The notes beneath the pieces are model-generated. The model saw only the letters and a program-made list of their open reading frames with translations. It ran no database searches and had not been told where the DNA came from. Shown in pieces: positions 20,871 through 64,000 of a DNA stretch of 64,000 nt. Source of the stretch: Amphiscolops sp. MND2022 (Eukaryota); the NCBI GenBank assembly GCA_964187785.1, contig OZ076409.1:70868001-70932000 (forward strand), read 5' to 3'. The stretch's first letter is position 1. The number at the start of each line of letters is the position of its first letter. Both the position numbers and the translations under genes were made by a program.

Positions 20871-20903
20871 GTGCGGGGGGGTAACCCCAACAAATATATT
20901 GGA

Positions 20904-20927
20904 GGATTCGGGTAGGGTCCTGAATCC
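20904..20927 (+). other. Head stem-loop with conserved (T/G)AGGGN loop (representative; one per unit head)
   Basis: GGATTCGGG-TAGGGT-CCTGAATCC in family C; different but still pairing stems surround the same loop in the other families. Confidence 0.8.
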
Positions 20928-22381: not shown

Positions 22382-22425
22382 GATAGCCTTTCAAGTTGGC
22401 CTGGTGTCAACTTGGAAGGGCTATC
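22382..22425 (+). other. GATAGCC-type subterminal hairpin (representative; one per C, E, G, H and I unit)
   Basis: GATAGCCTTTCAAGTTGGC-CTGGT-GTCAACTTGGAAGGGCTATC. The unit E version pairs over 20 bp when two G-T wobbles are allowed. Confidence 0.85.
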
Positions 22426-22841
22426 CTTCAAAAATCGTTAATCAAGTGTGTTTTTGGGTATGTTTTTATCATTTTAGAATCAATTAGAGCTCCAAGAAAA
22501 GTTTGCCAACGACAAAAACTATGTCGTGATGATTCCGTTATTAGAATGATGGTTAACAAAATGTTGATAAAGTTGATTTTTTACATTTCAAATGTGTCCT
22601 AAAAGCCAGAAAACTTCTTTACCAAAAAAATGGTATTGATTGAATTGTATATAACAGGTAATAAAAGTTCAAATTGATTATTACGTTTCATTATTCAAGC
22701 TAAAACTTCATAACAAAGTTTAATTAACGTCCACGCCACATACTTTACATCAACGCCCACCGTCTGTGGGCATGCCGAGGCATGCCCTTCGACGACATAT
22801 ACCAAATACATACCTAACGACGCCCGTACATGCCGGGCTAG

Positions 22842-40100: not shown

Positions 40101-43100
40101 TTGCGGTAGCAGCTAGGTGCGGGGGGGTAACCCCAACAAAGATATTGGAGGATTCGGGTAGGGTCCTGAATCCGATCTTAGTACCGCCAGCTATCAGTAG
40201 AAAATTTCCCTCAAAAACCGGGATCTCGGGAACTAACCGTAGGATTTGAAAGTTGGAGCGGCCCCCACCAGATTTTCCCGAATAGATCGCCCCCCACCGG
40301 GCTCCATACCCCGGAAAATTTTTTTTTGGCCACACGGGCGACAGTTAGGGGGTCATTTTAGGGGTAAAATTCATATTGGTCCATATAACTTTTTTTCTGT
40401 TGGTTTAAAAGTTTGGGAACCCTTCTAAAGGTTTTTCGACCATGTTGCAAGGGCTCCGGAGGTGCAAACCAAATTTTTCTATCTTGAAGCTATCTCCAAG
40501 TACCCCCCCGCTCAAACCGTTATTTTTCCGGAAACGCAGGTTTTTGACCCGGAAGGAGTCGTCTGAGCGCGGGGTCGTTAGGTGATGTTTTGGGGACGGC
40601 CTTGAGACAAAGTGGGGGACAAGTAGTTTGCCAACCTCAATTTACCCCCCGGACGGGAAATGACCGTTATATGAGCGTGAAAAATGCCCCCCTCCACGTT
40701 TTACCGCTATTTCCGGTGTGAAGGTGTGGGAGTAGCGCGTCGGGTGCCATATATCAAAAGTAGGTTTAGACAAGGATCTATCAAAAACATGTGGTTTGGG
40801 ACCCCCTGACCCAACCCGTTAGCGGGAAATGGGGCTTCCGCCTCCTTTTTTTTCGGTTAAAAACGGAAAATGGGCATTGAGGGGTAAATATCTCGTGAAC
40901 GCGTGGAGCTACGGTGTCCTTCACTACTACAAGGTTTCATACCCATGATATGGTGCCTTCAGGGGGGCAAACAGATTTCCGCTATCTATCACCGTTACGG
41001 ACTTGGCCCCCCAGCCTAACCGCTATGTGACCGGAAATGTCACTTTTTGAGCCCAAAGGGTCGGTCCCAGCCAGGGAACGTTAGATAACTTTTTGTAGTA
41101 CTCATTGAGACGAGTTGGGGGACATAGTTTCAGTCACCCCCCGTTACCCCTTGTGACCGGAAATGACCGTTATGTGGGTAAAATTGGGATTTTTGTACTT
41201 TTTGAAGGGCAATTAGGTGCGGAAGGAGTGGTAATAGGTGCTTGGACACTATATGATGGAATGGAGGACGTGAGGCGAACATTCAGACATAACCGTTATG
41301 TTGACCCTAAAGGCCCCCTGGTACCGTAAACGACCGGAAATGGTCAAATTTTGTGTCTATTGGGTACAAATGTTTGGTATTTTGTAAATAAAAGTATCTA
41401 TTAGGTGTTTCGACGGTCTGCAGTAGTGAACATAGTCATGAAACCTTGTGGGGGGTAACGGTATATAGCACCGGAAGTCCAAAACGTTAGAGACGGGATA
41501 GGTTTTTCCGTTTTAAAATGTCTTTCGGCGTACTTTTGTCAACTAATATGGAATATTTTTTAAAATTAAAGTTTTTCCATATAGTTTCAGAGACTCCCAA
41601 ACCTCAAACAACATAACCGTTACCTTATGATAGCCTTTCAAGTTGGCCTGGTGTCAACTTGGAAGGGCTATCCTTCAAAAATCGTTGATCAAGTGTGTTT
41701 TTGGGTATGTTTGAATCATTTTAGAATCAATTAGAGCTTCAAGAAATGTTTGCCAACGACAAAAACTATGTCGCGATGATTCCGTTATTAGAGTAATAGT
41801 TAACAAAATATTGATTAATTTGATTTTTTACATTTCAAAAGTGTCCTAAAAGCCAGAAAACCTCTTTACCAAACAAATGGTATTGATTGGATTGTATATA
41901 ACAGGTAATAAAAGTTCAAATTGATTATTACGTTTTATTATGTAAGCTGAAACGTCATATTATAGTTTAATTAACGTCAACGCCACATACTTTACACCAA
42001 CGCCCACCGTCTGTGGGCATGCCGAGGCATGCCCTTCGACGACGTATACCAAATACATTTCATATCTACACCCTAACCGCGGTAGCAGCTAGGTGCGGGG
42101 GGGTAACCCCTACAAAGATATTGGAGGATTCGGGTAGGGTCCTGAATCCGATCTTAGTACCGTCAGCTATCAGTAGAAAATTTCCCTCAAAAACCGGGAT
42201 CTCGGGAACTAACCGTAGGATTTGAAAGTTGGAGCGGCCCCCACCAGATTTTCCCAAATAGATCGCCCCCCACCGGGCTCCATACCCCGGAAAATTTTTT
42301 TTTGGCCACACGGGCGACTGTTAGGGGGTCATTTTAGGGGTAAAATTCATATTGGTCCATATAACTTTTTTTCTGTTGGTTTAAAAGTTTGGGAACCCTA
42401 CTAAAGGTTTTTCGACCATGTTGCAAGGGCTCCGGAGGTGCAAACCAAATTTTTCTATCTTGAAGCTATCTCCAAGTACCCCCCCGCTCAAACCGTTATT
42501 TTTCCGGAAACGCAGGTTTTTGACCCGGAAGGAGTCGTCTGAGCGCGGGGTCGTTAGGTGATGTTTTGGGGACGGCCTTGAGACGAAGTGGGGGACATGT
42601 AGTTTGCCAACCTCAGTTTACCCCCCGGACGGGAAATGACCGTTATATCAGCTGGAAAAATGCCCCCCTCCACGTTTTACCGCTATTTCCGGTGTGAAGG
42701 AGTGGGAGTAGCTCGTCGGGTGCCATATATCAAAAGTAGGTTCAGACAAGGACCTATCGGAAACATGTGGTTTGGGACCCCCTGACCCAACCCGTTAGCG
42801 GGAAATGGGGCTTCCGCCTCCTTTTTTTACGGTTAAAAACGGAAAATGGGCATTGAGGCATAAATATCTCGTGAACGCGTGGAGCTACGGTGTCCTTCAC
42901 TACTACAAGGTTTCATACCCATGATATGGTGCCTTCAGGGCGGCAAACAGATTTCCGCTATCTATCACCGTTACGGACTTGGCCCCCCAGCCTAACCGCT
43001 ATGTGACCGGAAATGTCACTTTTTGAGCCCAAAGGGTCGGTCCCAGCCAGGGAACGTTAGATAACTTATTGTAGTACTCATTGAGACGAGTTGGGGGACA

Positions 43101-46100
43101 TAGTTTCAGTCACCCCCGTTACCCCTTGGGACCGGAAATGACCGTTATGTGGGTAAAATTGGGATTTTTGTACTTTTTGAAGGGCAATTAGGTGCGGAAG
43201 GAGTGGTAATAGTTGCTTGGACACTATATGATGGAAGGGAGGACGTGAGGCGAACATTCGGACATAACCGTTATGTTGACCCTAAAGTCCCCCTGGTACC
43301 GTAAACGACCGGAAATGGTCAAATTTTGTGTCTATTGGGTACAAATGTTTGGTATTTTGTAAATAAAAGTATCTATTAGGTGTTTCGACGGTCTGCAGTA
43401 GTGAACATAGTCATGAAACCTTGTCGGGGGGTAACGGTATATAGCACCGGAAGTCCAAACCGTTAGAGACGGGATAGGTTTTTTCGTTTTAAAATGTCTT
43501 TCGGCGTACTTTGTCAACTAATATGGAATATTTTTTAAAATTAAAGTTTTTCCATATAGTTTCAGAGACTCCCAAACCTCAAACAACATAACCGTTACCT
43601 TATGATAGCCTTTCAAGTTGGCCTGGTGTCAACTTGGAAGGGCTATCCTTCAAAAATCGTTGATCAAGTGTGTTTTTGGGTATGTTTGAATCATTTTAGA
43701 ATCAATTAGAGCTTCAAGAAAAATTTGCCAACGACAAAAACTATGTCGTGATGATTCCGTTATTAGAGTAATAGTTAACAAAATGTTGATAAAGTTGATT
43801 TTGTACATTTCAAATGTGTCCTTTATGCCAGAAAACCTTTTTACCAAACTAATGATATTGATTGAATTGTATATAACAGGTAATAAAAGTTCAAATTGAA
43901 TATTACGTTTCATTTTGTAAGCTGAAACGTGATATTATAGTTTAATTAACGTCAACGCCACATACTTTACATCAACGCCCACCGTCTGTGGGCATGCCGA
44001 GGCATGCCCTTCGACGACGTATACCAAACACCCTCCATATCTACACCCACCCGCGGTAGCAGCTAGGTGCGGGGGGGTAACCCCAACAAATATATTGGAG
44101 GATTCGGGTAGGGTCCTGAATCCGATTTTAACTCTAATAGCTATCGATAGGAAATCTTGCAAAAATTTCGGGATCTCGTGATCTAACCATAGGATTTTAA
44201 AGTTGGAGCGGCCCCCACCAGATTTTCCGAAAATTAGCGCCCCCCACCGGGTTCCATACCCCGGAAAATTTTTTTCTGGCCACACGGGCGACCGTTAGGG
44301 GGTCATTTTAGGGGTAAAATTCATATTGGGCCACATAACTTTTTTACTGTTGGTTTAAAACTTTGGGACCCTGCTAAAAGTTTCTTGACCGTGTTGCAGG
44401 GGCCCCGGAGGTCCAAACCAATTTTTTCTATCTTGAAGCTATCTCCAAGTACCCCCCCGCTCAAACCGTTATTTTTCCGGAAACGCAGGTTTTTGACCCG
44501 GAAGGAGTCGTCTGAGCACGGGGTCGTTAGGTGATGTATTGGGGACGGCCTTGAGACGAAGTGGGGGACATGTAGTTTGCCAACCTCAGTTTACCCCCCG
44601 GACGGGAAATGACCGTTATATGAGCGGGAAAAATGCCCCCCTCCACGTTTTACCGCTATTTCCGGTGTGAAGGAGTGGGAGTAGCGCGTCGGGTGCCATA
44701 TATCAAAAGTAGGTTTAGACAAGGATCTATCGGAAACATGTGGTTTGGGACCCCCTGGACCAACCCGTTAGCAGGAAATGGGGCTTCCGGCCCGTTTTTT
44801 TACGGTTAAAAACGGAAAATGGTCATTGAGGGGTAAATATCTCGTGAACGCGTGGAGCAATCGTGTCCTTCACTACTACAAGGTTTCTTACCCATGATAT
44901 GGTGCCTTCAGGGGGGCAAACAGATTACCGCTATCTATCACCGTTACCGACTTGGCCCCCCAGCCTAACCGCTAAGTGACCGGAAATGTCATATTTTGAG
45001 CCCTAAGGGTCGGTCCCAGCCGGGGAACGTTAGGTAACTTATTGTAGTACTCAATGAGACGAGTTGGGGGATATAGTTTCAGTCACCCCCCGTTACCCCT
45101 TGTGACCGGAAATGACCGTTATGTGGGTAAATTTGCAATTTTTATACTCTTTGAAGTGCATTTATTTGCGGAAGGAGTGGTAATAGGTGCTTGGACACTA
45201 TATGAGGTAAGGGAGGACGTGAGGCGAGCATTCGAAAATAACCGTTATGTTGACCCCAAAGTCCCCCTGGTACCGGAAGTGACCGGAAATTGTCAAATTT
45301 TGTGTTTTTAGGGTACAAATGTTTGGTATTTTGTGGATAAAAGTACCTGGAAGGTGTTTTAAAAGCCTCCAGAAGTGAACATAGTCATGAAATTTTGTGG
45401 GGGGTAACGGTATATAGCACCGGAAGACAAAAACGTTGGAGACATGTTAGGTTTTTTGGTTTTAAAATGTCTTTCGGCGTACTTTTGTCCACTATTATGA
45501 ACTATTTTTGAAAATTAAAGTTTTTCCATATAGTTTCAGAGACTCCCAAACCTCAACCAACATAACCGTTACATTTTGATAGCCTTTCAAGTTGGCCTGG
45601 TGTCAACTTGGAAGGGCTATCCTTCAAAAATCGTCAATCAAGTGTGTTTTTGGGTATGTTTGTATCATTTTAGAATCAAATAGAGCTTCAAGAAAAGTTT
45701 GCCAACGACAAAAACTATGTTGTGATGATTCCGTTATTAGAATAATAGTTAGCAAATTGTTGAGAAAATTGATTTTTTCCATATAAAATGTGTCCTAATT
45801 GCCAGGAAACCTATTTAACTAACAAATGGTATTGATTGGAATGTATGTAACAGAGTTATAAAAGTTCAAATTGATTATTACGTTTCATTATGGAAGCTGA
45901 AACGTAATATTTTAGTTTAATTAACGTCAACGCCACACACTTTACATCAACGCCCACCGTCTGTGGGCATGCCGAGGCATGCCCTTCGACGACGTATGGC
46001 AAATCCCTTCTAACGACGCCCGTACATGCCGGGCTAGGTGCGGGGGGGTAACCCCAACAAAGATATTGGAGGATTCGGGTAGGGTCCTGAATCCGATCTT

Positions 46101-48033
46101 AGTACCGTCAGCTATCAGTAGAAAATTTCCCTCAAAAACCGGGATCTCGGGAACTAACCGTAGGATTTGAAAGTTGGAGCGGCCCCCACCAGATTTTCCC
46201 AAATAGATCGCCCCCCACCGGGCTCCATACCCCGGAAAATTTTTTTTTGGCCACACGGGCGACTGTTAGGGGGTCATTTTAGGGGTAAAATTCATATTGG
46301 TCCATATAACTTTTTTTCTGTTGGTTTAAAAGTTTGGGAACCCTACTAAAGGTTTTTCGACCATGTTGCAAGGGCTCCGGAGGTGCAAACCAAATTTTTC
46401 TATCTTGAAGCTATCTCCAAGTACCCCCCCGCTCAAACCGTTATTTTTCCGGAAACGCAGGTTTTTGACCCGGAAGGAGTCGTCTGAGCGCGGGGTCGTT
46501 AGGTGATGTTTTGGGGACGACCTTGAGATGAAGTGGGGGACATGTAGTTTGCCAACCTCAGTTTACCCCCCGGACGGGAAATGACCGTTATATGAGCGGC
46601 AAAAATGTCCCCCTCCACGTTTTACCGCTATTTCCGGTGTGAAGGAGTGGGAGTAGCGCGTCGGGTGCCATATATCAAAAGTAGGTTTAGACAAGGACCT
46701 ATCGGAAACATGTAGTTTGGGACCCCCTGGTCCAACCCGTTAGCGGGAAATGGGGCTTCCGGCCCGTTTTTTTACGGTTAAAAACGGAAAATGGGCATTG
46801 AGGGGTAAATATCTCGTGAACGCGTGGAGCTACGGTGTCCTTCACCACTACAAGGTTTCATACCCATGATATGGTGCCTTCAGGGGGGCAAACAGATTTC
46901 CGCTATCTATAACCGTTACGGACTTGGCCCCCCAGCCTAACCGCTATGTGACCGGAAATGTCACTTTTTGAGCCCAAAGGGTCGGTCCCAGCCAGGGAAC
47001 GTTAGATAACTTATTGTAGTACTCATTGAGACGAGTTGGGGGACATAGTTTCAGTCACCCCCGTTACCCCTTGGGACCGGAAATGACCGTTATGTGGGTA
47101 AAATTGGGATTTTTGTACTTTTTGAAGGGCAATTAGGTGCGGAAGGAGTGGTAATAGTTGCTTGGACACTATATGATGGAAGGGAGGACGTGAGGCGAAC
47201 ATTCGGACATAACCGTTATGTTGACCCTAAAGTCCCCCTGGTACCGTAAACGACCGGAAATGGTCAAATTTTGTGTCTATTGGGTACAAATGTTTGGTAT
47301 TTTGTAAATAAAAGTATCTATTAGGTGTTTCGACGGTCTGCAGTAGTGAACATAGTCATGAAACCTTGTCGGGGGGTAACGGTATATAGCACCGGAAGTC
47401 CAAACCGTTGGAGACAGGATAGGTATTTTGGTTTTAAATGCCTATAAGCGTACTTTTGTGGGTTGAATTGTTTCAATATCGACTAATTTGGAAATTTTTT
47501 TGACATTGAAGGTTTTTTCAATAGTTTCAGGGACCTCCAATGCTTCAATCAATATAACCGTTACCTTATGATAGCCTTTCAAGTTGGCCTGGTGTCAACT
47601 TGGAAGGGCTATCCTTCAAAAATCGTTGATCAAGTGTGTTTTTGGGTATGTTTGAATCATTTTAGAATCAATTAGAGCTTCAAGAAAAATTTGCCAACGA
47701 CAAAAACTATGTCGTGATGATTCCGTTATTAGAGTAATAGTTAACAAAATGTTGATAAAGTTGATTTTGTACATTTCAAATGTGTCCTTTATGCCAGAAA
47801 ACCTTTTTACCAAACTAATGATATTGATTGAATTGTATATAACAGGTAATAAAAGTTCAAATTGAATATTACGTTTCATTTTGTAAGCTGAAACGTGATA
47901 TTATAGTTTAATTAACGTCAACGCCACATACTTTACATCAACGCCCACCGTCTGTGGGCATGCCGAGGCATGCCCTTCGACGACGTATACCAAACACCCA
48001 CCATATCTACACCCTAACCGCGGTAGCAGCTAG
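34178..48033 (+). mobile_element. Family C units x7 (1975, 1972, 1992, 1976, 1974, 1971, 1996 bp)
   Basis: Junctions at 36152, 38124, 40116, 42092, 44066, 46037 and 48033; highly similar but mosaic copies. Confidence 0.7.
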
Positions 48034-49323
48034 GTGCCCGGATTTCTATTCATTAAAGTATGTTGCGCGTGTGGGTAGGGCCCCGTGGCGCGCTCTTGTG
48101 TCCCTGTTCTCATAACTGCAATTTCCGGCAGCATTCTGAGCGATTTTCTAAACTATCCATACGATTCGGCTGAAATTTGGCACATGTACCCCCCTCGGCA
48201 CGGTGAAGATGATTTCCTACTGACGTTTTTCCCGCAAAATTTTTTTTGTTGTCCAAAATAACGGTTTTTGGGGTAAAATTTCGAACTTTTTTTAAATTTC
48301 ATCCTATATCTCGCCACGGGTTTACGCTAGCGCTTCAAAACCCTGCTAAAGAAAGCTTGCAAACTGTCTCAGGAATGCGGTGTGAAATTTTCGGCTCAAT
48401 CGGACTTAAACTCAGGGAGATATAGCGTTTTTCCGGAGCGGGGGGGTTTCATTTTTCTAACGGTCCAGCTTATCTTTGCCATTTTTTCGAAAATGCACTC
48501 GCCTAAAGGCCTCCCCTGGCCGGTTTTATTCCCAGGAAAACCATTTGGCCCTAAATACGGAGTTTCAGCGTTCCAGCATTCCCGGGCGAAAAGTTGTGGG
48601 ACTTAGAAAAGTTCAAAAGTTTTCAAAAAATTTTTTTTCCGTTTTCCGCCCTCCCCCCCTAGGGGAAACGACCCCCCAACCAATAATTTGAGTGAATTCA
48701 TGTGGAAAGGCCATGTTTAGAGGAGAAAAATACCGTTTAGATCGTCTTTTTATCTTTATTCAACGTTGACTTATGACGTTTTGAAGGTGATGTTTGGAGG
48801 TGTGAAGCACGTGAAAAGTAAACGTTATGAGTATTTATCTGATCTGAAAGCCATTGAGATGCAACCTGTTTTGCTCAAAACGTAATTCATATCAGTTTGG
48901 TAGTCAATCAACACCCTTTGTTGTCATTTGACATCTTTTTTTGTTGATATAAGAAAAAATTTTGTGTATTTATTCATTTTTTTCTCATCAAATAACTTGA
49001 AACAGTTGAGTACATTCCATCCCCCCTTCACGGGGGAGATGAGAATGTACTCGCAAAAAGCCCCGAACTACGGCCCTTACCTTCCTGAGCTACGCAGTAT
49101 AAAGATTGCATATTGGTTTCGACATTTTGATAGAGTTATATCTTGGTAATCTGTCTGGGTATGCAGAAAAACCAGCACGTGCTTTTTTATACCAAGTTGC
49201 TCACAACGACATTTATTTTATATCAACGCCCCCATATTTATCAACGCCCCCCGTCCGTGGGCATGCCGAGGCATGCCCTTCGACGACGTATACCAAAATA
49301 TATTCGAACGCGGTAGCGGCTAG
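48034..49323 (+). mobile_element. Family B unit (1290 bp), isolated within the C run
   Basis: B body with a unique head variant (GTGCCCGGATTTC); CTAG|GTG at both ends. Confidence 0.7.
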
Positions 49324-52300
49324 GTGCGGGGGGGGTAACCCCAACAAAATTTTTGGAGGATTCGGGTAGGGTCCTGAATCCGAGTTCAGTGCTGCCAGCT
49401 TTCGTTAAGAAAATTTGGATAGGATTCGGGATCTCGTGATCTAACCATAGGATTTTAAAGTTGGAGCGGCCCCCACCAGATTTTCCGAAAATTAGCGCCC
49501 CCCACCGGGTTCCATACCCCGGAAAATTTTTTTCTGGCCACACGGGCGACCGTTAGGGGGTCATTTTAGGGGTAAAATTCATATTGGGCCACATAACTTT
49601 TTTTCTGTTGATTTAAAACTTTGGGACCCTGCTAAAAGTTTCTTGACCGTGTTGCAGGGGCCCCGGAGGTCCAAACCAAATTTTTCTAGCTTGAAGCTAT
49701 CTCCAAGTACCCCCCCGCCCAAAACGTTATTTTTCCGGAAACGCAGGTTTTTGACCCGGAAGGAGTCGTCGGAGCGCGGGGTCGTTAGGTGATGTATTGG
49801 GGACGGCCTTGAGACGAAGTGGGGGACATGCAGTTTGCCAACCCCAGTTTACCCCCCGGACGGGAAATGACCGTTATATGAGCGGGAAAATGCCCCCTTC
49901 CACGTTTTACCGCTATTTCCGGTGTGAAGGAGTGGGAGTAGCGCGTCGGGTGCCATATATCAAAAGTAGGTTTAGACAAGGATCTATCGGAAACATGTGG
50001 TTTGAGACCGCCTGGACTAACCCGTTAGCGGGAAATGGGGCTTCCGGCCCGTTTTTTGACGGTTAAAAACGGAAAATGGGCATTGAGGGGTAAATATCTC
50101 GTGAACGCGTGGAGCTACGGTGTCCATCACTACTACAAGGTTTCATACCCATGATATGGTGCCTTCAGGGGGGCAAACAGATTTCCGCTATCTATCACCG
50201 TTACTGACTTGGCCCCCCAGCCTAACCGCTATGTGACCGGAAATGTCACTTTTTGAGCCCAAAGGGTCGGTCCCAGCCAGGGAACGTTAGGTAACTTATT
50301 GTAGTACTCATTGAGATGAGTTGGGGGACATAGTTTCAGTCACCCCCCGTTACCCCTTAAGACCGGAAATGACCGTTATGTGGGTAAAATTGCAATTTTT
50401 ATACTTTTTCAAGTGTATTTAGGTGCGGAAGGAGTGGTAATAGGTGCTTTGACACTATATGATGTAATGGAGGTCGTGAGGAGAGCATTCGGAAATAACC
50501 GTTATGTTGACCCCAAAGTCCCCCTGGTACCGTTAACGACCGGAAATGGCCAAATTTTGTGTCTATTGGGTACAAATGTTTCGTATTTTATGGATAAAAG
50601 TACCTGGAAGGTGTTTTAAAGGCCTCCAGAAGTGAACATAGTCATGAAACCTTGTGGGGGGTAACGGTATATAGCACCGGAAGTCCAAACCGTTGGTCAC
50701 AGAATAGGTTTTTTGGTTTCAAAATGTCTTTAGGCATAGTTTTGTGGGTTGAATCGTCATAATATCAATTAACACGGACTTTTTTCGGAAATAAAAATTT
50801 TTCACATTAGTTTCAGGGACCTCCAATGCTTCAGTCAACATAACCGTTACATTTTGATAGCCTTTCAAGTTGACCTGGTGTCAACTTGGAAGGGCTATCC
50901 TTCTAAAATCGTTAATCAAGAGTGTTTTTGGGTAGGTATATGTTGCATTAGTACCAATTAGAGCTTCATCAACAGTTTGCCAACGGCAAAAACGATGTCG
51001 TGATAATTCCGTTATAAAAATATTAGTAAACAAATTGTTTTCAAAGTTGATTTTTTCCATTAAAAATGTGTCCTAATGCCACCAAATTGAATAAAATAAT
51101 AAATGGTATTGACTAAAACTAAATAACAATGAAAAAGAAGATCAACATTTTTATTAGGTCTCATTATGGAAGCTGAAACCTCACGTTTTAGTTTAATTAA
51201 CGTCAACGCCACATACTTTACATCAACGCCCACCGTCTGTGGGCATGCCGAGGCATGCCCTTCGACGACGTATACCAAACAACCTCCATATCTACACCCA
51301 CCCGCGGTAGCAGCTAGGTGCGGGGGGGTAACCCCAACAAAATTTTTGGAGGATTCGGGTAGGGTCCTGAATCCGAGTTCAGTGCTGCCAGCTTTCGTTA
51401 AGAAAATTTGGATAGGATTCGGGATCTCGTGATCTAACCATAGGATTTTAAAGTTGGAGCGGCCCCCACCAGATTTTCCGAAAATTAGCGCCCCCCACCG
51501 GGTTCCATACCCCGGAAAATTTTTTTCTGGCCACACGGGCGACCGTTAGGGGGTCATTTTAGGGGTAAAATTCATATTGGGCCACATAACTTTTTTTCTG
51601 TTGATTTAAAACTTTGGGACCCTGCTAAAAGTTTCTTGACCGTGTTGCAGGGGCCCCGGAGGTCCAAACCAAATTTTTCTATCTTGAAGCTATCTCCAAG
51701 TACCCCCCCGCCCAAAACGTTATTTTTCCGGAAACGCAGGTTTTTGACTCGGAAGGAGTCGTCGGAGCGCGGGGTCGTTAGGTGATGTATTGGGGACGGC
51801 CTTGAGACGAAGTGGGGGACATGCAGTTTGCCAACCCCAGTTTACCCCCCGGACGGGAAATGACCGTTATATGAGCGGGAAAAATGCCCCCCTCCACGTT
51901 TTACCGCTATTTCCGGTGTGAAGGAGTGGGAGTAGCGCGTCGGGTGCCATATATCAAAAGTAGGTTTAGACAAGGATCTATCGGAAACATGTGGTTTGGG
52001 ACCCCCTGGACCAACCCGTTAGCAGAAAATGGGGCTTCCGGCCCGTTTTTTACGGTTAAAAACGGAAAATGGGCATTGAGGGGTAAATATCTCGTGAACG
52101 CGTGGAGCTACGGTGTCCTTCACTACTACAAGGTTTCATACCCATGATATGGTGCCTTCAGGGGGGCAAACAGATTTCCGCTATCTATCACCGTTACGGA
52201 CTTGGCCCCCCAGCCTAACCGTTAAGTGACCGGAAATGTCATATTTTGAGCCCAAAGGGTCGGTCCCAGCCAGGGAACGTTAGGTAACTTATTGTAGTAC

Positions 52301-55300
52301 TCATTGAGACGAGTTGGGGGACATAGTTTCAGTCACCCCCCGTTACCCCTTAGGACCGGAAATGACCGTTATGTGAGTAAAATTGCCATTTTTGTCCTAT
52401 TTGAAGGGCATTTAGATGCGGAAGGAGTGGTAATAGGTGCTTGGACACTATATGAGGTAAGGGAGGACGTGAGGCGAGCATTCAGACATAACCGTTATGT
52501 TGACCCTAAAGTCCCCTTGGTACCGTAAACGACCGGAAATGGTCAAATTTTGTGTCTATTGGGTACAAATGTTTGGTATTTTGTAAATAAAAGTATCTAT
52601 TAGGTGTTTCAACGGTTTGCAGTAGTGAACATAGTCATGAAACCTTGTGGGGGGTAACGGTATATAGCACCGGAAATCCGAACCGTTGGAGACAGGATAG
52701 GTTTTTTGGTTTTAAAATGTCTTTCGGCGTACTTTTGTCGACTATTATGGACTATTTTTATCAATTAAAGTTTTTCCATATAGTTTCAGAGACTCCGAAA
52801 CTTCAACCAACATAACCGTTACCTTATGATAGCCTTTCAAGTTGGCCTGGTGTCAACTTGGAAGGGCTATCCTTCTAAAATCGTTAATCAAGAGTGTTTT
52901 TGGGTAGGTATATATTGCATTAGTACCAATTAGAGCTTCATCAACAGTGTATCAACGACAAAAACTATGTCGTGATGATTCCGTTATCAGAATAATAGTG
53001 AGCTAATTGTTGACAAAAATAATTTTTTCCATTCAAAATGTGTCCTAAATGCCAGGAAACCTATTTTCCTAAAAAATGGTATTGATTGGAATGTATGTAA
53101 CCTATTTATAAAAGTTCAAATTGATTATTACGTTTCATTATGGAAGCTGAAACGTAATATTTCAGTTTAATTAACGTCAACGCCACACACTTTACATCAA
53201 CGCCCACCGTCTGTGGGCATGCCGAGGCATGCCCTTCGACGACATATACCAAATACATACCTAACGACGCCCGTACATCCCGGGCTAGGTGCGGGGGGGT
53301 AACCCCAACAAATATATTGGAGGATTCGGGTAGGGTCCTGAATCCGATTTTAACTCTAATAGCTATCGATAGGAAATCGTGCAAAAATTTCGGGATCTCG
53401 TGATCTAACCATAGGATTTTAAAGTTGGAGCGGCCCCCACCAGATTTTCCAAAGTTATTCGCCCCCCACCGGGTTCCAGCGTGATTGAAATATTTTGACG
53501 GGGTACACGGGCGACCGTTAGGGGTCATTTTGGGGGTAAAATTTATATCCGGTCGCATAACTTTTTTCCTGTTGGTTTAAAACTTTGGGACCCTGCTAAA
53601 AGTTTCTTGACCGTGTTGCAGTGGCTCCGGAGGTCCAAACCAAATTTTTCTATCTTGAAGCTATCTCCAAGTACCCCCCCGCTCAAACCGTTATTTTTCC
53701 GGAAACGCAGGTTTTTGACCCGGAAGGAGTCGTCTGAGCGCGGGGTCGTTAGGTGATGTTTTGGGGACGGCCTTGAGACGAAGTGGGGGACATGTAGTTT
53801 GCCAACCTCAGTTTACCCCCCGGACGGGAAATGACCGTTATATGAGCGGGAAAATTGCCCCCCTCCACGTTTAACCGCTATTTCCGGTGTGAAGGAGTGG
53901 GAGTAGCGCGTCGGGTGTCATATATCAAAAGTAGGTCTAGACAAGGACCTATCGGAAACATGTAGTTTGGGACCCCCTGGTCCAACCCGTTAGCGAGAAA
54001 TGGCGCTTCCGCCTCCTTTTTTTACTGCTAAAACCGTAAAATGGGCATTGAGGGGTAAATATCTCGTGAACGCGTGGAGCAATCGTGTCCATCACTACTA
54101 CAAGGTTTCATACCCATGATATGGTGCCTTCAGGGGGGCAAACAGATTTCCGCTATCTATCACCGTTACCGACTTGGCCCCCCAGCCTAACCGCTATGTG
54201 ACCGGAAATGTCACTTTTTGAGCCCAAAGGGTCGGTCCCAGCCGGGGAACGTTAGGAAACTTATTGTAGTACTCAATGAGACGAGTTGGGGGATATAGTT
54301 TCAGTCACCCCCCGTTACCCCTTGGGACCGGAAATGACCGTTATGTGGGTAAAATTGCAATTTTTATACTTTTTCAAGTGTATTTAGGTGCGGAAGGCGT
54401 GGTAATAGGTGCTTGGACACTATATGAGGTAAGGGAGGACGTGAGGCGAGCATTCGGAAATAACCGTTATGTTGACCCTAAAGTCCCCCTGGTACCGTAA
54501 ACGACCGGAAATGGTCAAATTTTGTGTCTATTGGGTACAAATAATTATTATTTTGTAGATAAAAGTTTCTTTTAGGTGTTTCGACGGTCTGCAATAGTGA
54601 ACATAGTCATGAAACCTTGTGGGGGGTAACGGGGTATATAGCACCGGAAGTCCAAACCGTTGGACACAGGATAGGTTTTTGGTTTGAAAATGTCTTTCGG
54701 CGTACTTTTGTCGACTATTATGGACTATTATTAAAAATTAAAGATTTTCCATATAGTTTCAGAGACTCCGAAACCTCAACCAACATAACCGTTACATTTT
54801 GATAGCCTTTCAAGTTGGCCTGGTGTCAACTTGGAAGCGCTATCCTTCTGAAATCGTTAATCAAGAGTGTTTTTGGGTAGGTATATATTGCATTAGTACC
54901 AATTAGAGCTTCATCAACAGTGTATCAACGACAAAAACTATGCCGTCATGATTCCGTTATCAGAATCATAGTGAGCAAATTGTTGAAAAAAATGGTTTTT
55001 TCCATACAAAATGTGTCCTAAATGCCAGGAAACCTATTTACCTAACAAATGGTATTAATTGGAATGTATGTAACAGAGTTATAAAAGTTCAAATTGAATA
55101 TTACATTTCATTATGGAAGCTGAAACGTCATATTTTAGTTTAATTAACGTCCACGCCACATACTTTACATCAACGCCCACCGTCTGTGGGCATGCCGAGG
55201 CATGCCCTTCGACGACGTATACCAAATACATACCCAAACGACGCCCGTACATCCCGGGCTAGGTGCGGGGGGGAAACCCCAACAAAATTTTTGGAGGATT

Positions 55301-58300
55301 CGGGTAGGGTCCTGAATCCGAGTTCAGTGCTGCCAGCTTTCGTTAAGAAAATTTGGATAGGATTCGGGATCTCGTGATCTAACCATAGGATTTTAAAGTT
55401 GGAGCGGCCCCCACCAGATTTTCCGAAAATTAGCGCCCCCCACCGGGTTCCATACCCCGGAAAATTTTTTTCTGGCCACACGGGCGACCGTTAGGGGGTC
55501 ATTTTAGGGGTAAAATTCATATTGGGCCACATAACTTTTTTTCTGTTGATTTAAAACTTTGGGACCCTGCTAAAAGTTTCTTGACCGTGTTGCAGGGGCC
55601 CCGGAGGTCCAAACCAAATTTTTCTAGCTTGAAGCTATCTCCAAGTACCCCCCCGCCCAAAACGTTATTTTTCCGGAAACGCAGGTTTTTGACCCGGAAG
55701 GAGTCGTCTGAGCGCGGGGTCGTTAGGTGATGTTTTGGGGACGGCCTTGAGACGAAGTGGGGGACATGTAGTTTGTCAACCTCAGTTTACCCCCCGGACA
55801 GGAAATGACCGTTATATGAGCGGGAAAATTGCCCCCCTCCACGTTTTACCGCTATTTCCGGTGTGAAGGAGTGGGAGTAGCGCGTCGGGTGCCATATATC
55901 AAAAGTAGGTTTAAACAAGGACCTATCGGAAACATGTGGTTTGGGACCCCCTGGACCTACCCGTTAGCAGGAAATGGGGCTTCCGGCCCGTTTTTTTACG
56001 GTTAAAAACGGAAAATGGGCATTGAGGGGTAAATATCTCGTGAACGCGTGGAGCTACGGTGTCCTTCACTACTACAAGGTTTCATACCCATGATATGGTG
56101 CCTTCAGGGGGGCAAACAGATTTCCGCTATCTATCGCCGTTACCGACTTGGCCCCCCAGCCTAACCGCTATGTGACCGGAAATGTCACTTTTTGTGCCCA
56201 AAGGGTCGGTCCCAGCCGGGGAACGTTAGGTAACTTATTGTAGTACTCAATGAGACGAGTTGGGGGATATAGTTTCAGTCAACCCCCGTTACCCCTTGGG
56301 ACCGGAAATGACCGTTATGTGGGTAAATTTGCAATTTTTATACTCTTTGAAGTGCATTTAGGTGCGGAAGGAGTGGTAATAGGTGCTTGGACACTATATG
56401 AAGGAAGGGAGTACGTGAGGCGAGCATTTGGAAATAACCGTTATGTTGACCCTAAAGTCCCCCTGGTACCGGAAGTGACCCGTAATGGTCAAATTTTGTG
56501 TTCAAAGGGTACAAATGTTTGGTATTTTGTAGATAAAAGTATCTATTAGGTGTTTCGACGGTCTGCAGTCGTGAACATTGTCATGAAACCTTGTGGGGGG
56601 TAACGGTATATAGCACCGGAAGTCCAAACCTTTGGAGACAGCATAAGTTTTTTGGTTTTAAAATGTCTTTCGGCCTACTTTTGTCGACTATTATGGTCTA
56701 TTTTTGAAAAATAAAGTTTTTCCATATAGTTTCAGAGACTCCGAAACCTCAACCAACATAACCGTTACGTTATGATAGCCTTTCAAGTTGGCCTGGTGTC
56801 AACTTGGAAGGGCTATCCTTCAAAAATCATTAATCAAGTGTGTTTTTGAGTATGTTTGTATTACTTTAGAATCAATTAGAGCTTCAAGAAAAGTTTGCCA
56901 ACGACAAAAACTATGTCGTGACGATTCCGTTATTAGAATAATAGTTAAGAAAATGCTGATAAATTTGATTTTTTACATTTCAAATGTGTCCTAAATGCCA
57001 GAAAACCTCTTTACCAAACAAATGGTATTAAGTGAATTGTATATAACAGCTAATAAAAGTTCAAATTGAATATTACGTTTCATTTTGGAAGCTGAAACGT
57101 CATTTTGTAGTTTAATTAACCTCAACGCCACATACTTTACATCAACGCCCACCGTCCGTAGGCATGCCGAGGCATGCCTTTCGACGACGTATACCAAATT
57201 CCACCCACACAACACCCCCGAGCGCGGTAGCAGCTAGGTGCGGGGGGGAAACCCCAACAAAATTTTTGGAGGATTCGGGTAGGGTCCTGAATCCGAGTTC
57301 AGTGCTGCCAGCTTTCGTTAAGAAAATTTGGATAGGATTCGGGATCTCGTGATCTAACCATAGGATTTTAAAGTTGGAGCGGCCCCCACCAGATTTTCCG
57401 AAAATTAGCGCCCCCCACCGGGTTCCATACCCCGGAAAATTTTTTTCTGGCCACACGGGCGACCGTTAGGGGGTCATTTTAGGGGTAAAATTCATATTGG
57501 GCCACATAACTTTTTTTCTGTTGATTTAAAACTTTGGGACCCTGCTAAAAGTTTCTTGACCGTGTTGCAGGGGCCCCGGAGGTCCAAACCAAATTTTTCT
57601 ATCTTGAAGCTATCTCCAAGTACCCCCCCGCTCAAACCGTTATTTTTCCGGAAACGCAGGTTTTTGACCCGGAAGGAGTCGTCTGAGCGCGGGGTCGTTA
57701 GGTGATGTATTGGGGACGGCCTTGAGACGAAGTGGGGGACAAGTAGTTTGCTAACCTCAGTTTACCCCCCGGACGGGAAATGACCGTTATATGAGCGGGA
57801 AAAATGCCCCCCTCCACGTTTTACCGCTATTTCCGGTGTGAAGGAGTGGGAAAAGCGCGTCGGGTGTTATATAACAAAAGTAGGTTTAGACAAGGACCTA
57901 TCGGAAACATGTAGTTTGGGATCCCCTGGACCAACCCGTTAGCGGGAAATGGGGCTTCCGCCTCCTTTTTTTACTGCTAAAACCGTAAAATGGGCATTGA
58001 GGGGTAAATATCTCGTGAACGCGTGGAGCAATCGTGTCCATCACTACTACAAGGTTTCATACCCATGATATGGTGCCTTCAGGGGGGCAAACAGATTTCC
58101 GCTATCTGTCACCGTTACGGACTTGGCCCCCCAGCCTAACCGCTATGTGACCGGAAATGTCATATTTTGAGCCCAAAGGGTCGGTCTCAGCCAGGGAACG
58201 TTAGGTAACTTATTGTAGTACTCATTGAGACGAGTTGGGGGACATAGTTTCAGTCACCCCCCGTTACCCCTTAGGACCGGAAATGACCGTTATGTGAGTA

Positions 58301-61197
58301 AAATTGCAATTTTTATACTTTTTCAAGTGTATTTAGGTGCGGAAGGAGTGGTAATAGGTGCTTGGACACTATATGAGGTAAGGGAGGACGTGAGGCGAGC
58401 ATTCGGAAATAACCGTTATATTGACCCTAAAGTCCCCCTGGTACCGTAAACGACCGGAAATGGTCAAATTTTGTGTCTATTGGGTACAAATGTTTAGTAT
58501 TTTGTAGATAAAAGTATCTATTAGGTGTTTCGACGGTCTGCAATAGTGAACATAGTCATGAAACCTTGTGGGGGGTAACGGGGTATATAGCACCGGAAGT
58601 CCAAACCGTTGGACACAGGATAGGTTTTTGGTTTGAAAATGTCTTTCGGCGTACTTTTGTCGACTATTATGGACTATTATTAAAAATTAAAGTTTTTCCA
58701 TATAGTTTCAGAGACTCCGAAACCTCAACCAACATAACCGTTACATTTTGATAGCCTTTCAAGTTGGCCTGGTGTCAACTTGGAAGCGCTATCCTTCTGA
58801 AATCGTTAATCAAGAGTGTTTTTGGGTAGGTATATATTGCATTAGTACCAATTAGAGCTTCATCAACAGTGTATCAACGACAAAAACTATGCCGTCATGA
58901 TTCCGTTATTAGAATCATAGTGAGCAAATTGTTGAAAAAAATGGTTTTTTCCATACAAAATGTGTCCTAAATGCCAGGAAACCTATTTACCTAACAAATG
59001 GTATTAATTGGAATGTATGTAACCTATTTATAAAAGTTCAAATTGATTATTACGTTTCATTATGGAAACTGAAACGTCATATTTTAGTTTAATTAACGTC
59101 AACGCCACACACTTTACATCAACGCCCACCGTCTGTGGGCATGCCGAGGCATGCCCTTCGACGACGTATACCAAATACATACCTAACGACGCCCGTACAT
59201 CCCGGGCTAGGTGCGGGGGGGAAACCCCTTCCCTTATCTTGGAGGATTCGGGTAGGGTCCTGAATCTGATCTTAGTTCGCCCAGCTCTCAGTAGAAATCT
59301 GGGAAATTTTTTGCGATCTCGTGATCTAACCATAGGATTTTAAAGTTGGAGCGGCCCCCACCAGATTTTCCAAAGTTATTCGCCCCCCACCGGGTTCCAG
59401 CGTGATTGAAATATTTTGTCGGGGTACACGGGCGACCGTTAGGGGTCATTTTGGGGGTAAAATTTATATCCGGTCGCATAACTTTTTTTCTGTTGATTTA
59501 AAACTTTGGGACCCTGCTAAAAGTTTCTTGACCTTGTTGCAGTGGCTCCGGTGGTCCAAACCAAATTTTTCTATCTTGAAGCTATCTCCAAGTACCCCCC
59601 CGCCCAAACCGTTATTTTTCCGGAAACGCCGGTTTTTGACCCGGAAGGAGTCGTCTGAGCGCGGGGTCGTTAGGTGATGTTTTGGGGACGGCTTTGAGAC
59701 GAAGCGGGGGATATATAGTTTGCCGACCCCAGTTTACCCCCCGGACGGGAAATGACCGTTATTTGAGCGGGAAAAATGCCCCCCTCCACGTTTTACCGCT
59801 ATTTCCGGTGCGAAGGAGTGGGAGTAGCGTGTCGGGTGTTATATAACAAAAGTAGGTTTAGACAAGGACCTATCGGAAACATGTAGTTGGGGACCCCCTG
59901 GTCCAACCCGTTAGCGGGAAATGGGGCTTCCGCCTCCTTTTTTTACTGCTAAAACTGTAAAATGGGCATTGAGGGGTAAATATCTCGTGAACGCGTGGAG
60001 CAATCGTGTCCATCACTACTACAAGGTTTCATACCCATGATATGGTGCCTTCAGGGGGGCAAACAGATTTCCGCTATCTATCACCGTTACGGACTTGGCC
60101 CCCCAGCCTAACCGCTATGTGACCGGAAATGTCACTTTTTGAGCCCAAAGGGTCGGTCCCAGCCGGGGAACGTTAGGTAACTTATTGTAGTACTCAAGGA
60201 GACGAGTTGGGGGATATAGTTTCAGTCAACCCCCGTTACCCCTTGGGACCGGAAATGACCGTTATGTGGGTAAATTTGCATTTTTTATACTTTTTCAAGT
60301 GCATTTATGTGCGGAAGGAGTGGTAATAGGTGCTTGGACACTATATGATGTAATGGAGGTCGTGAGGAGAGCATTCGGAAATAACCGTTATGTTGACCCC
60401 AAAGTCCCCCTGGTACCGTTAACGACCGGAAATGGCCAAATTTTGTGTCTATTGGGTACAAATGTTTGGTATTTTATGGATAAAAGTACCTGGAAGGTGT
60501 TTTAAAGGTCTCCAGAAGTGAACATAGTCATGAAACCTTGTGGGGGGTAACGGTATATAGCACAGGAAGTCCAAACCGTTGGTCACAGAATAGGTTTTTT
60601 GGTTTCAAAATGTCTTTAGGCATAGTTTTGTGGGTTGAATCGTCATAATATCAACTAATACGGACTTTTTTTCGGAAATGAAATTTTTTCACATTAGTTT
60701 CAGGGACCTCCAATGCTTCAGTCAACATAACCGTTACATTTTGATAGCCTTTCAAGTTGACCTGGTGTCAACTTGGAAGGGCTATCCTTCTAAAATCGTT
60801 AATCAAGAGTGTTTTTGGGTAGGTATATGTTGCATTAGTACCAATTAGAGCTTCATCAACAGTTTGCCAACGGCAAAAACGATGTCGTGATAATTCCGTT
60901 ATAAAAATATTAGTTAACAAATTGTTTTCAAAGTTGATTTTTTCCATTAAAAATGTGTCCTAATGCCACCAAATTGAATAAAATGGTATTGACTAAAACT
61001 AAATAACAATGAAAAAGAAGATCAACATTTTTATTAGGTCTCATTATGGAAGCTGAAACCTCACGTTTTTGTTTAACTAACGTCAACGCCACAAACTTTT
61101 TATCAACGCCCACCGTCTGTGGGCATGCCGAGGCATGCCCTTCGACGACGTATACCAAACAACCTCCATATCTACACCCACCCGCGGTAGCAGCTAG
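49324..61197 (+). mobile_element. Family C units x6 (1994, 1971, 1974, 1975, 1973, 1987 bp)
   Basis: Junctions at 51317, 53288, 55262, 57237, 59210 and 61197. Confidence 0.7.
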
Positions 61198-63192
61198 GTG
61201 CGGGGGGGTAACCCCAACTTTTTTCTTGGAGGAATCGGGTAGGGTCCTGATTCCGAGCTTAGTGCCGCCAGCTATCGTTAAAAACCCATACCTTTTAAAC
61301 CCGATCTCGGGAACTAACCACGCCCCTTCTTTAATTTTTTGGCCCCCACTCACTTTTTGAGAGTAGATCGCCCCCCACTGGGTTCCAAGTTGGGCAAAAA
61401 TGGAGGTCATGGGTAACGGGGACCGTTAAGGGGTAACTCAGGGGGTAAAATTTATTTTTTGCGTCAAATCTTTTCCCCCCGTGGATTTAGCGCTTCCGGT
61501 CAGCAGACAAAACCTCATGTACGTGATACGGGGCCTCCGTAGGTCCAAACAAAATTTTTCTATCATGCACCGTTACGGACTTGCCCCCCCGGTCCAACCG
61601 TTATTTTACCGGAAATTGCACTTTTTGACCGGGAAGGAGTCGTCTGAGCACGGAGTCGTTTGGTAATGTTTTGTAGTGCATCTAGAGACGTGTTGGGGGA
61701 CATGTAGTTTGCCGGCCCCAAATTACCCCCCGGACGGGAAATGACCGTTATGTGAGTTTTAAAATTACCCCCCTTCAATTTCCCCCGTTATTTCCGGTGT
61801 GAAGGAGTGGGAGTAGCGCGTCGGGTGCCATATATCAAAAGTAGGTTTAGACAAGGACCAACCGGAAACTTGTGGTTTGGGACCCCCTGACCCAACCCGT
61901 TAGCCGTTATAAGGGTGATCGCCTCCTTTTTTTGCACTCAAAACCAGAAAACGGGTATTGAGGGGTAAATATCTCGTGAACGCGTGGAGCAATCGTGTCC
62001 ATCACTACTACAAGGTTTCATACCCATGATATGGTGCCTTCAGGGGGGCAAACAGATTACCGCTATCTATCACCGTTACGGACTTGGCCCCCCAGCCTAA
62101 CCGCTATGTGACCGGAAATTGCACTTTTTGAGCCCAAAGGGTCGATCCTAGCCGGGCAACGTTAGGTAACATATTGTGGTACTCATTGAGACGAGTTGGG
62201 GGATATAGTTTCAGTCACCCCCCGTTACCCCTTGAGACCGGAAATGACCGTTATGTGAGTAGAATTGCAATTTTTATACCTTTTGAAGGGCATTTAGGTG
62301 CGGAAGGAATGGTAATAGGTGCTTGGACACTATATGATGTAATGGAGGTCGTGAGGAGAGCATTCGGAAGTAACCGTTACGTTGACCCCAAAGTCCCCCT
62401 GGTACCGTTAACAACCGGAAATGGCCAAATTTTGTGTTTATAGGGTACAAATGTTTGGTATTTTATGGATAAAAGTACCTGGAAGGTGTTTTAAAGGCCT
62501 CCAGAAATGAACATAGTCATGAAACTTTGTGGGGGGTAACGGTATATAGCACCGGAAGTCCAAACCGTTAGTTACAGAATAGGTTTTTTGGTTTCAAAAT
62601 GTCTTTAGGCGTAGTTTTGTGGGTTGAATCGTCATAATATCAACTAATACGGACTTTTTTCGGAAATAAAATTTTTTCACATTAGTTTCAGGGACCTCCA
62701 ATGTTTCAGTCAACATAACCGTTACATTTTGATAGCCTTTCAAGTTGGCCTGGTGTCAACTTGGAAGGGCTATCCTTCTAAAATCGTTAATCAAGAGTGT
62801 TTTTGGGGAGGTATATGTTGCATTAGTACCAATTAGAGCTTCATCAACAGTTTGCCAACGGCAAAAACGATGTCGTGATAATTCCGTTATAAGAATATTA
62901 ATTAACAAATTGTTTACAAAGTTGATTTTTTCCATTCGAAAAGTGTCCTAATGCCACCAAATTGAATAAAATAATAAATGGTATTGACTTAAACTAAATA
63001 ACATTGAAAAAGAAGATCAACATTTTTATTAGGTCTCATCATGGAAGCTGAAACCTCACGTTTTAACTTAATTAACGTCAACGCCACATACTTTACATCA
63101 ACGCCCACCGTCTGTGGGCATGCCGAGGCATGCCCTTCGACGACGTATACCAATTACATATATATCTACACCCTAACCGCGGTAGCCGCTAG
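61198..63192 (+). mobile_element. Divergent C-like unit I (1995 bp)
   Basis: The first ~500 bp are diverged from C, including a compensatory base-pair change in the head hairpin (61231-61254); the 3' part matches the C units at 49324 and 59211. Confidence 0.65.
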
Positions 63193-64000
63193 GTGCCGGG
63201 ATTTTCTATTCGACAAGTTTGCGCGCCTTGGGGAGGGTCCCTTTGCGCGCTTTAAGATCCAGGTGTTTCCAACTCCTAAACGGGCATGTGATTTCGACGA
63301 TCTCCTAAACTAGCCATACGATTTGGCTGAAATTTGGCACACGTACCCCCCTCGGCACGGTGAAGATGATTTCCTACTGACGTTTTTCCCGCTAAACATT
63401 TTTTGTTGACCAAAATAACGGTTTTTGGGGTAAAATTTTCAACTTTTTTTAAATTTCATCTTATATCTCGCCACGAGTACACGCTAGCGCTTCCAAACCT
63501 TGCTGACGAAACCTTGCAAACTGTCTCAGGAATGCTGTGTGAAATTTTCAGCTCAATCGGACCTAAACTCGGGGAGATATAGCGTTTTTCCGGAGCGGGG
63601 GGGTTTCATTTTTCTAACGGTCCAGCTTATCTTTGCCATTTTTTCGAAAATGCACTCGCCTAAAGGCCTCCCCTGGCCGGTTTTATTCCCAGCAAAACCA
63701 TTTGGCCCTAAATACGGAGTTTCAGCGTTCCAGCATTCCCGGGCGAAAAGATGTGGGACTTAGAAAAGTTCAAAAATTTTCAAAAAAAAATTTTTCCGTT
63801 ATTTGGGCCCTCAAAGTGGGGGAAAAGTCCCCCCAACCAGTAAAGCAAGTGAATGCATGTGGAAAGCCCTTGTTTAGACGAGAAAAATGCCGTTTAGAAC
63901 GTCTTTTTATCTTAACTTGACATTGACTTTTGTCGTTTTGAAGGTGACCGTTAGATACGGAAAATTGATGTTTTGAGTATTTATCCCATCTGAAAGCCAT
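63193..64000 (+). mobile_element. Family B unit, partial (cut by the window end)
   Basis: Same subtype as the units at 6781 and 13204 (head ...CGACAAGTTTGCGCGCCTTGGGGAGGGTCCC; GAAGGTGACCGTTAGATACGG). Confidence 0.7.

Follow-up and report, generated by a model that had tools for sequence, protein, structure and literature searches.

Organization of the array and its units

The window analyzed in this study is a stretch of 64,000 nucleotides of the Amphiscolops sp. MND2022 genome (C1:70,868,001-70,932,000 of 1.07 Gb). It is filled by a mixed head-to-tail array of short units (Table 1) that runs beyond the window on both sides; from + strand tails and RepHel genes, the whole array spans about 6 Mb, from about C1:70.5 to 76.5 Mb. 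The units run GTG...CTRG, and the eight clusters in the window have little in common except unit ends. Of 37 junctions between units, 36 read CTAG/GTG (the slash marks the boundary) and one, at 34174, reads CTGG/GTG. No ORF longer than 165 aa was found within the 64-kb window. The window units are non-autonomous rolling-circle transposons, and elements of this kind occur in thousands in the genome, in head-to-tail arrays of up to several Mb.

Neighboring units were no more alike than distant ones (90.3% versus 89.8% in family C), which fits unit-by-unit insertion, unlike a concatemer copied from one template. A simple satellite and a single-template concatemer were ruled out by the mixed families and the lack of extra likeness between neighbors. 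The pairs U9-U10 and U11-U12 (window 14476-19581) form a duplicated dimer, with 99% identity across and 85% within the dimers, indicating that recombination, read-through, or unequal exchange also shapes the array. Family A units (window 1-6780) contain an internal inverted repeat of 43 to 44 bp and two copies of a segment of ~120 bp that is common to the 5' regions of other families. At L034:3297-9720, two arrays that run in opposite directions meet, within about 2.3 kb.

A tail palindrome, present in 37 copies in the window, sits about 40 to 55 nt before the CTAG or CTGG end. A 29-mer from the tail has 4,239 exact copies in the genome, distributed over many arrays. The same heads are also joined to several tail types that lack the GCATGC palindrome and end in CCTCCACTGG, CCATCGCTAG, or CCACGTCTAG (L042, L040, L038, L090, and L122), so the heads are common to more elements than the tails are.

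Table 1 Positions of the array, its units, and their terminal structures in the window
Feature	Position	Strand	Basis
Mixed head-to-tail array	1..64000	+	Two partial and 36 whole units; the whole units measure 1.27-2.38 kb and form eight sequence clusters
Variant head of family H, AGACGGGT loop	32155..32225	+	Unit map, tail-anchored count, folding
Tail palindrome GGGCATGCC-GA-GGCATGCCC, which precedes the CTAG of the upstream unit by 53 nt and is likely a terminator hairpin	61121..61140	+	Copies; predicted hairpin
Junction CTAG/GT, where the upstream unit finishes (3' end) and the following one starts; also a copy of the insertion target and the predicted nick site	61194..61199	+	Array edges, empty sites, nested insertions
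Family I non-autonomous unit, 1,995 bp, GTG...CTAG, without coding capacity	61198..63192	+	Unit map
Small first hairpin GGGG..CCCC	61204..61215	+	Predicted by folding
Main head hairpin GGAATCGGG-TAGGGT-CCTGATTCC (loop 61240-61245); likely ssDNA origin recognition hairpin	61231..61254	+	Sequence; covariation and strand tests
Tail palindrome of the unit starting at 61198	63116..63135	+	Copies, predicted hairpin

Ends and insertion target

At one pair of array edges, the sequence reads host CTAG/GTG at the start of the array and CTAG/host at its end. A solitary unit was found inside a repeat, 19 uninterrupted copies of which read CTTG/GT at the empty site; the inserted unit is flanked by CTTG on either side. 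In addition, a B unit on C8 carries two nested insertions, located at its only two internal CTDGGT sites and reading CTTG/...CTAG/GT and CTGG/...CTAG/GT; the solitary unit L197 reads CTTG/...CTGG/GT, and the solitary unit L190 also agrees with this boundary. Because the tetranucleotides differ between the two sides in the nested units and L197, the 3' tetranucleotide is the element's own and no duplication is involved. A 4-bp target duplication as a rule was thus ruled out by the nested insertions and solitary copies. The unit L033 has CTTG on both sides, and a short duplication is therefore possible there.

All six left host junctions that were found without requiring the tetranucleotide (L033, L035, L049, L089, L112, and L190) were CTDG, and three further left host junctions came from selection by the CTDG pattern. 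At host junctions, the bases following CTRG were GT, AT, TT, and AC, in a set enriched for non-GT. The elements are inserted 3' of CTDG (CTAG, CTGG, or CTTG), with GT next in the best-resolved sites, and insertion is oriented and occurs without target duplication in clean cases. A circle junction would have the same sequence as an array junction. A - strand reading with the head as a 3' terminator was rejected, as CTAG stays on the tail side at array edges and nested sites. A search for an empty site of the array at C1:29.5 Mb gave no match. At L190:3000-5010, the solitary unit, located at CTAG/AT, splits a sequence that appears tRNA-like by eye; ARAGORN called no gene on this interrupted locus.

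Conservation of the head hairpin

The motif GGKAGGGNCC occurs 36 times in the window, always on the + strand, against an expected number of 1.23 and a largest count of 4 in shuffled sequences. What stays constant in the head is a loop of 6 nt that has GGG at positions 3 to 5 and is closed by G-C pairs; in 38 head clusters, including those of other arrays, the loop starts 39 to 59 nt past the junction, and 23 of 50 loops begin GAGGG. Folding of the 38 head clusters predicted the small first hairpin in many, not all, head families. The junction-plus-head pattern was found 4,855 times genome-wide and 0 times with a reversed control, and the core hairpin alone gave 5,576 matches versus 660 in the control. 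Comparison of 5,576 minus 660 with the 4,855 matches in junction context shows that nearly all the excess copies are tied to junctions.

A preliminary description of this DNA had reported hairpins at 61231-61254 and 2060-2088 and a GAATCT variant in the unit at 59211, all of which match the sequence exactly. It had also placed the loop at the start of every unit, with a looser variant in family H. The family H variant was found as described, in the head at 32155; the other 36 of the 37 heads in the window carry GG-(T/G)AGGGN-CC. The head loop is not invariant genome-wide either: in a count anchored on tails (n = 183), the strict head came next in 165 cases, variant loops in nine (TTGGGT, TCGGGT, AGACGGGT, and other), a second head type without the loop in five, and host or internal sequence in four. 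The second head type, GTGGAGG..., which lacks the GGG-KAGGGN-CCC loop, follows normal tails at L043:700-5200, L044:6060, and L091:1360.

When 16 C and I units were selected by their junction, variation was 0.008 in the hairpin columns versus 0.071 overall, and 5.8% of 24-column windows matched the conservation of the hairpin. Of 40 C and I copies, a set chosen partly on the 5' arm, 36 were canonical, three had a double swap, and one had a G-T change.

Covariation and strand preference of the hairpin

Covariation was examined in 51 heads, in which the two innermost pairs were fixed by the search pattern used to pick them. Pair 12-25 was kept in 44 of these heads, with 14 double changes, whereas pair 13-24 was G-C in 35, G-T in 15, T-C in one, and A-C in none; the covariation score, uncorrected for kinship, was reached by none of 500 shuffles. 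For an arm-swap control, 29 heads thinned to 60% arm identity or less were used. The native arms gave a mean of -7.8 kcal/mol versus -4.4 kcal/mol for swapped arms and were better in 27 of the 29 heads. The double changes and the arm swap bear out the earlier observation that stems differ between families while the loop is kept, and the pairs at 13-24 agree with the earlier remark that non-Watson-Crick pairs are often G-T on the + strand. CpG decay was rejected as the source of the G-T pairs (CpG observed/expected 0.88-1.13, no uniform strand skew in the units).

The + strand folded better than the - strand in 23 of the 29 thinned heads, and in 24 with a neutral loop. The same preference was seen in 30 of the 38 head clusters, with DNA and with RNA parameters alike. 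When only the outer arms were shuffled, z was below -1.64 as DNA in 27 of the 38 clusters. Whole-head z-scores were modest (-2.4 to +0.9 for seven + strand heads), and the hairpin of family D folds weakly (z = -0.1; whole head, +0.9), yet family D is multicopy. RNA parameters gave stronger hairpin folds than DNA parameters, and folding discriminates neither DNA nor RNA as the form of the hairpin. The hairpin is real, covaries between families, and prefers the + strand, and the covariation, arm-swap, and strand tests together support the suggestion of the preliminary description that selection acts on a folded + strand.

The autonomous partner

At C1:24.00 Mb, within another array, a head is followed on the same strand by an ORF of 2,373 aa. 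A Pfam scan of this ORF detected Helitron_like_N (E = 5e-10), PIF1 (E = 6e-11), and, below the cut-off, GIY-YIG; its motif III contains two tyrosines. The RepHel proteins are 2,100 to 2,600 aa long and consist of an HUH-Y2 nuclease and a PIF1 helicase, often with GIY-YIG, which a crude pattern detected in 11 of 20 own RepHel loci. A search of the genome with the Rep region gave at least 126 matches (122 of 454 candidates were scored), many of them in open frames above 2,100 aa; L051:1548-8669 is one example of an intact copy. Among the matches listed, identity ranged from 100% down to 30%, with a cluster on the + strand at about C1:70.5-76.5 Mb. This roughly 6-Mb same-strand array contains numerous intact RepHel genes, which belong to five or more divergent lineages and lie among the non-autonomous units. 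Further clusters are located at C2:102-103.9 Mb, C3:2.5-3.7 Mb, and C1:3.48-3.64 Mb, near contig ends.

A CTNG/GTG head was present upstream in 19 of 20 RepHel loci and a junction downstream in 18 of 20; at L097, no head was found within 17 kb of the RepHel gene. RepHel elements with close ends measure 12 to 17 kb. In six of the 19 loci, the head lies 8.9 to 15 kb from the Rep match, and the bounds are less sure there because an unseen junction may intervene. The head lies upstream on the sense strand, at a distance of 1 to 3.5 kb or more from the first ORF. Given this position and strand, the head marks the element's 5' end relative to RepHel. From base 1, window family D matches the 5' end of L095 (88% over 734 bp), family C that of L101 (87% over 1,067 bp), and family B that of L104 (72-73%), and the first 1.06 kb of the family I unit at 61198..63192 has 81.5% and 76% identity to the RepHel 5' regions of L099 and L101, respectively. 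The autonomous partners share arrays and heads with the window units. In the autonomous relatives of families C and I (L101/L163 and L099/L161), tandem repeats of ~500 bp lie between the head and the ORF. A retrozyme or Penelope partner was rejected: Rfam detected no hammerhead, and the partner in the arrays is RepHel.

A second ORF, downstream of RepHel, is conserved in 13 loci that were aligned. Its structure model (pLDDT 78) matches the OB folds of RPA (E = 9e-6), MCM10 (Z = 9.6), Teb1, CST, and TEBP, and these matches are generic (Z = 7-9.6). The model suggests that the product is a predicted OB-fold ssDNA-binding protein. In some autonomous elements, an ORF of 206 aa is located between RepHel and the OB-fold gene (L052:3360-3980, - strand); it has a GASN motif reminiscent of SGNH hydrolases. 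The two accessory ORFs had no match in Pfam.

Relatives and phylogeny

A profile search identified 419 clusters of relatives at E ≤ 1e-30, one of them from hagfish. Among 18 relatives scanned, 13 had GIY-YIG and none had DUF6570; some relatives carry an OTU domain. For a relative with 30% identity, two metagenome contigs diverge exactly at CTGG/GTAG and CTAG/GTAG, and a similar downstream ORF was seen by eye. A hairpin in this relative is doubtful, as DNA folding gave none and a 6-nt AAGGGG loop appeared in one RNA fold length only. No relatives of P0112 with DNA context were found in metagenomes, only P0048 giving loci, and none with DNA context were found in viral contigs, prokaryote genomes, or phage records. 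The ESM Atlas returned generic Helitron_like_N clusters at 0.91 to 0.95, which supports the superfamily and does not place the clade.

Two quick, unrooted trees with long branches and no outgroup were constructed, in which 38 rows (Rep; SH-aLRT 99) and 41 rows (helicase; SH-aLRT 100) of this group were split from the references. The genome also has conventional HLE1-like and HLE2-like RepHel genes (L168-L178), which served as Pfam-classed references: two HLE1-like and eight HLE2-like for Rep and six HLE2-like for the helicase. The Rep tree excludes nine relatives that failed the motif II pattern and three near-identical own copies, and the helicase tree excludes the HLE1-like references and others without the Walker A pattern. 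DUF6570 was absent from P0001 and three near-whole own proteins and present in eight of ten references. The Rep profile matched Helraiser with an E value of 0.18 only. From these sequence comparisons, the transposase appears to branch apart from the HLE1- and HLE2-like references.

Comparison with known systems

Helitrons comprise two main groups, which are classed by their ends and insertion sites. The present elements have the features of the Helitron superfamily, namely, an HUH Rep with two tyrosines fused to PIF1 and oriented insertion without duplication (L033 alone being ambiguous) and without the need for terminal inverted repeats; the longest exact match between the ends of the 36 units was 5 to 8 nt, against a shuffled mean of 6.7. 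HLE1 is described as having TC...CTRR ends and inserting at A/T, and HLE2 as having short inverted repeats (12-16 nt), a T/T site, and DUF6570 (PMC11417382).

The HUH-Y2/PIF1 RepHel, the origin end upstream of its ORF, the RPA-like gene downstream, and the lack of target duplication in clean cases resemble HLE1 as described (PMC4778049, PMC11417382). A 3' hairpin followed by a CTRR-like end is also shared, but the palindrome is ~40 to 55 nt away here versus the 11 nt given for Helraiser. Unlike HLE1 as reported, all heads start with GT, not TC; insertion occurs after CTDG, not at A/T; the 5' hairpin is conserved; and RepHel has 2,100 to 2,600 aa, often with GIY-YIG. Moreover, motif II is E(F/Y)Q-x4-N-x2-HxH, two residues longer than the reported HLE1 motif ExQ-x-RG-x2-HxH and without RG, and the Rep does not group with the two HLE1-like references in the quick unrooted tree. 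The likeness to HLE2 lies in the large RepHel, the hairpins described near both ends of Helitron2, and OTU in some relatives, and one HLE2 family with a captured GIY-YIG has been reported (PMC11417382); by contrast, there is no T/T site or DUF6570, and the group forms a separate branch in the Rep and helicase trees.

A third Helitron clade, described from Paramecium and possibly akin to the present group, shares very long transposase ORFs, a position outside HLE1 and HLE2, oriented sequence-specific insertion, and non-autonomous derivatives (PMC13085455). Its reported CCAA ends and telomeric-repeat target differ from the CTRG ends and non-telomeric flanks found here, and GIY-YIG, RPA, and OB-fold proteins are not mentioned in the main text of that report. 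The bacterial element IS91 is reported to have a tetranucleotide target (CTTG or GTTC) by the origin, a CTCG terminator end, subterminal palindromes at both ends, no duplication, and a Y2 HUH enzyme (PMC13181058), and the host CTTG beside its origin is described as essential (PMC13181058; model in PMC5714925). However, IS91 is described as having no fused helicase and a transposase of separate origin (PMC10288648), whereas PIF1 is fused here, and a Pfam scan detected no IS91 transposase family. The likeness to IS91 is one of end logic, not of membership. Among invertebrates, Helitron-like repeats are also known to form tandem arrays of megabase size at the subtelomeres of Hydractinia and Nematostella; the description there is of single families, with an internal unit of 372 bp, and no such ends, target, or partner appear in the accessible part of that report (PMC11934779). 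In a search of mainly open-access literature, we found no Helitron clade with a CTDG/GT target or such a head; members of the group may already be catalogued in Repbase/Dfam.

Discussion

Taken together, the analysis indicates that the head is the 5' end of a Helitron-like element and that its hairpin probably acts as a + strand origin signal bound by the element's own RepHel. HUH enzymes are described as often recognizing DNA hairpins (PMC10288648), and Helraiser is reported to need its left end, to be cut as ssDNA, and to be nicked at the 5' end, which cannot be lost (PMC4778049). The preliminary description had left two forms for the folded strand, a transcript or displaced ssDNA; a + strand ssDNA fits a Helitron-like 5' end with an HUH nuclease-helicase partner, while an RNA or ribozyme was unsupported.

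By analogy with Helraiser and IS91, RepHel would grip the hairpin in the unwound + strand, nick CTDG/GT about 40 to 60 nt upstream of the loop, and remain attached to the 5' G. Next, the PIF1 helicase would peel off the + strand, which the OB-fold protein would coat; the tail palindrome would pause the enzyme, the second tyrosine would cut after CTRG, and the strand or its circle would be joined to a new CTDG/GT. With GT at its start and CTRG at its end, each inserted element turns one target into two. Every existing junction would accordingly be a target with signals for the bound enzyme on both sides, which could give mixed arrays one unit at a time, and it is likely that mixed arrays arise through target recreation at each insertion. 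By means of the shared loop, several divergent RepHel lineages would be able to recognize one another's ends.

We consider it unlikely that the hairpin instead functions as RNA, as a protein-binding loop or processing signal at transcript 5' ends that controls RepHel expression, with the non-autonomous units inheriting it. The G-T(U) pairs, the bulged stems, and the stronger folds with RNA parameters are typical of RNA, the head precedes the ORF on the sense strand, and UAGGG(A/U) is an hnRNP A1-type site. Nevertheless, non-coding units of every family retain the hairpin, at a fixed distance from a DNA junction, the first ORF is far from the head, and the core shows no excess away from junctions. 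Nor is there an Rfam family: the check for known structured RNAs proposed in the preliminary description gave no match to Rfam 15 at gathering score in the 64 kb, and at E ≤ 1 only a mir-4435 match on the tail palindrome was obtained, which is far below the cut-off and likely due to chance.

A role in second-strand priming appears quite unlikely. In this case the hairpin would be unneeded for the nick; on the released + circle it would attract a primase and an OB-fold protein that binds G-rich ssDNA, either that of the element or host RPA/CST. The + strand preference would suit this role, as would the commonest loop, TAGGGT, which resembles the animal telomere repeat, but nearly half of the loops begin GAGGG. 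The OB-fold model matches Teb1, CST, and TEBP as well as RPA, although in a generic manner. Helraiser is described as making circles, double-stranded ones of which transpose (PMC4778049), but the tight junction spacing of the hairpin is better explained by a nicking enzyme.

It is very unlikely that the hairpin serves mainly on the acceptor side, marking a junction as a landing pad and being kept since arrays are safe sites. Array membership is the rule and most tails are followed by a strict head, even though CTDGGT is a common hexamer; however, CTDG sites that lack a downstream hairpin also receive solitary and nested insertions, and every incoming element supplies a head of its own. Acceptor-side marking may be a secondary function of the hairpin and not its main one. 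Finally, a duplex-DNA binding site within an imperfect palindrome, the arms of which match through template switching or conversion rather than selection on the fold, is scarcely probable: inverted repeats can self-correct, and a 5' GGG fixed for sequence reasons could give G-T but no A-C at pair 13-24, but divergent heads have family-specific bulges and arms that pair far better when native than when swapped, a neutral loop does not abolish the + strand preference, and neither CpG depletion nor a uniform strand skew points to a C-to-T bias.

Beyond the + strand origin signal, we tentatively propose a broader reading, which we regard as possible rather than probable. The elements may represent an undescribed, widespread third Helitron-like lineage, characterized by its diagnostic motif II, in most cases a C-terminal GIY-YIG nuclease, and an OB-fold partner, with IS91-style CTDG/GT ends, a target recreated at insertion, and a 5' ssDNA loop that steers elements into their own junctions. 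This one code would be common to at least five divergent autonomous lineages and to dozens of non-autonomous families, which together would build cassette-like safe-harbor arrays of several Mb.

The element breaks the end and site rules of both Helitron groups while keeping the enzyme architecture, and its end logic converges on that of bacterial IS91. Arrays of this kind would escape annotation tools that rely on TC...CTRR ends or inverted repeats. Repeated self-insertion would be a route to megabase mixed arrays that is unlike satellite amplification. Because intact copies exist, the ends are short, and the target is defined, origin recognition and target choice of a Helitron are testable with oligonucleotides, and, if the proposal is true, a self-targeting safe-harbor system could be a site-specific DNA writer.
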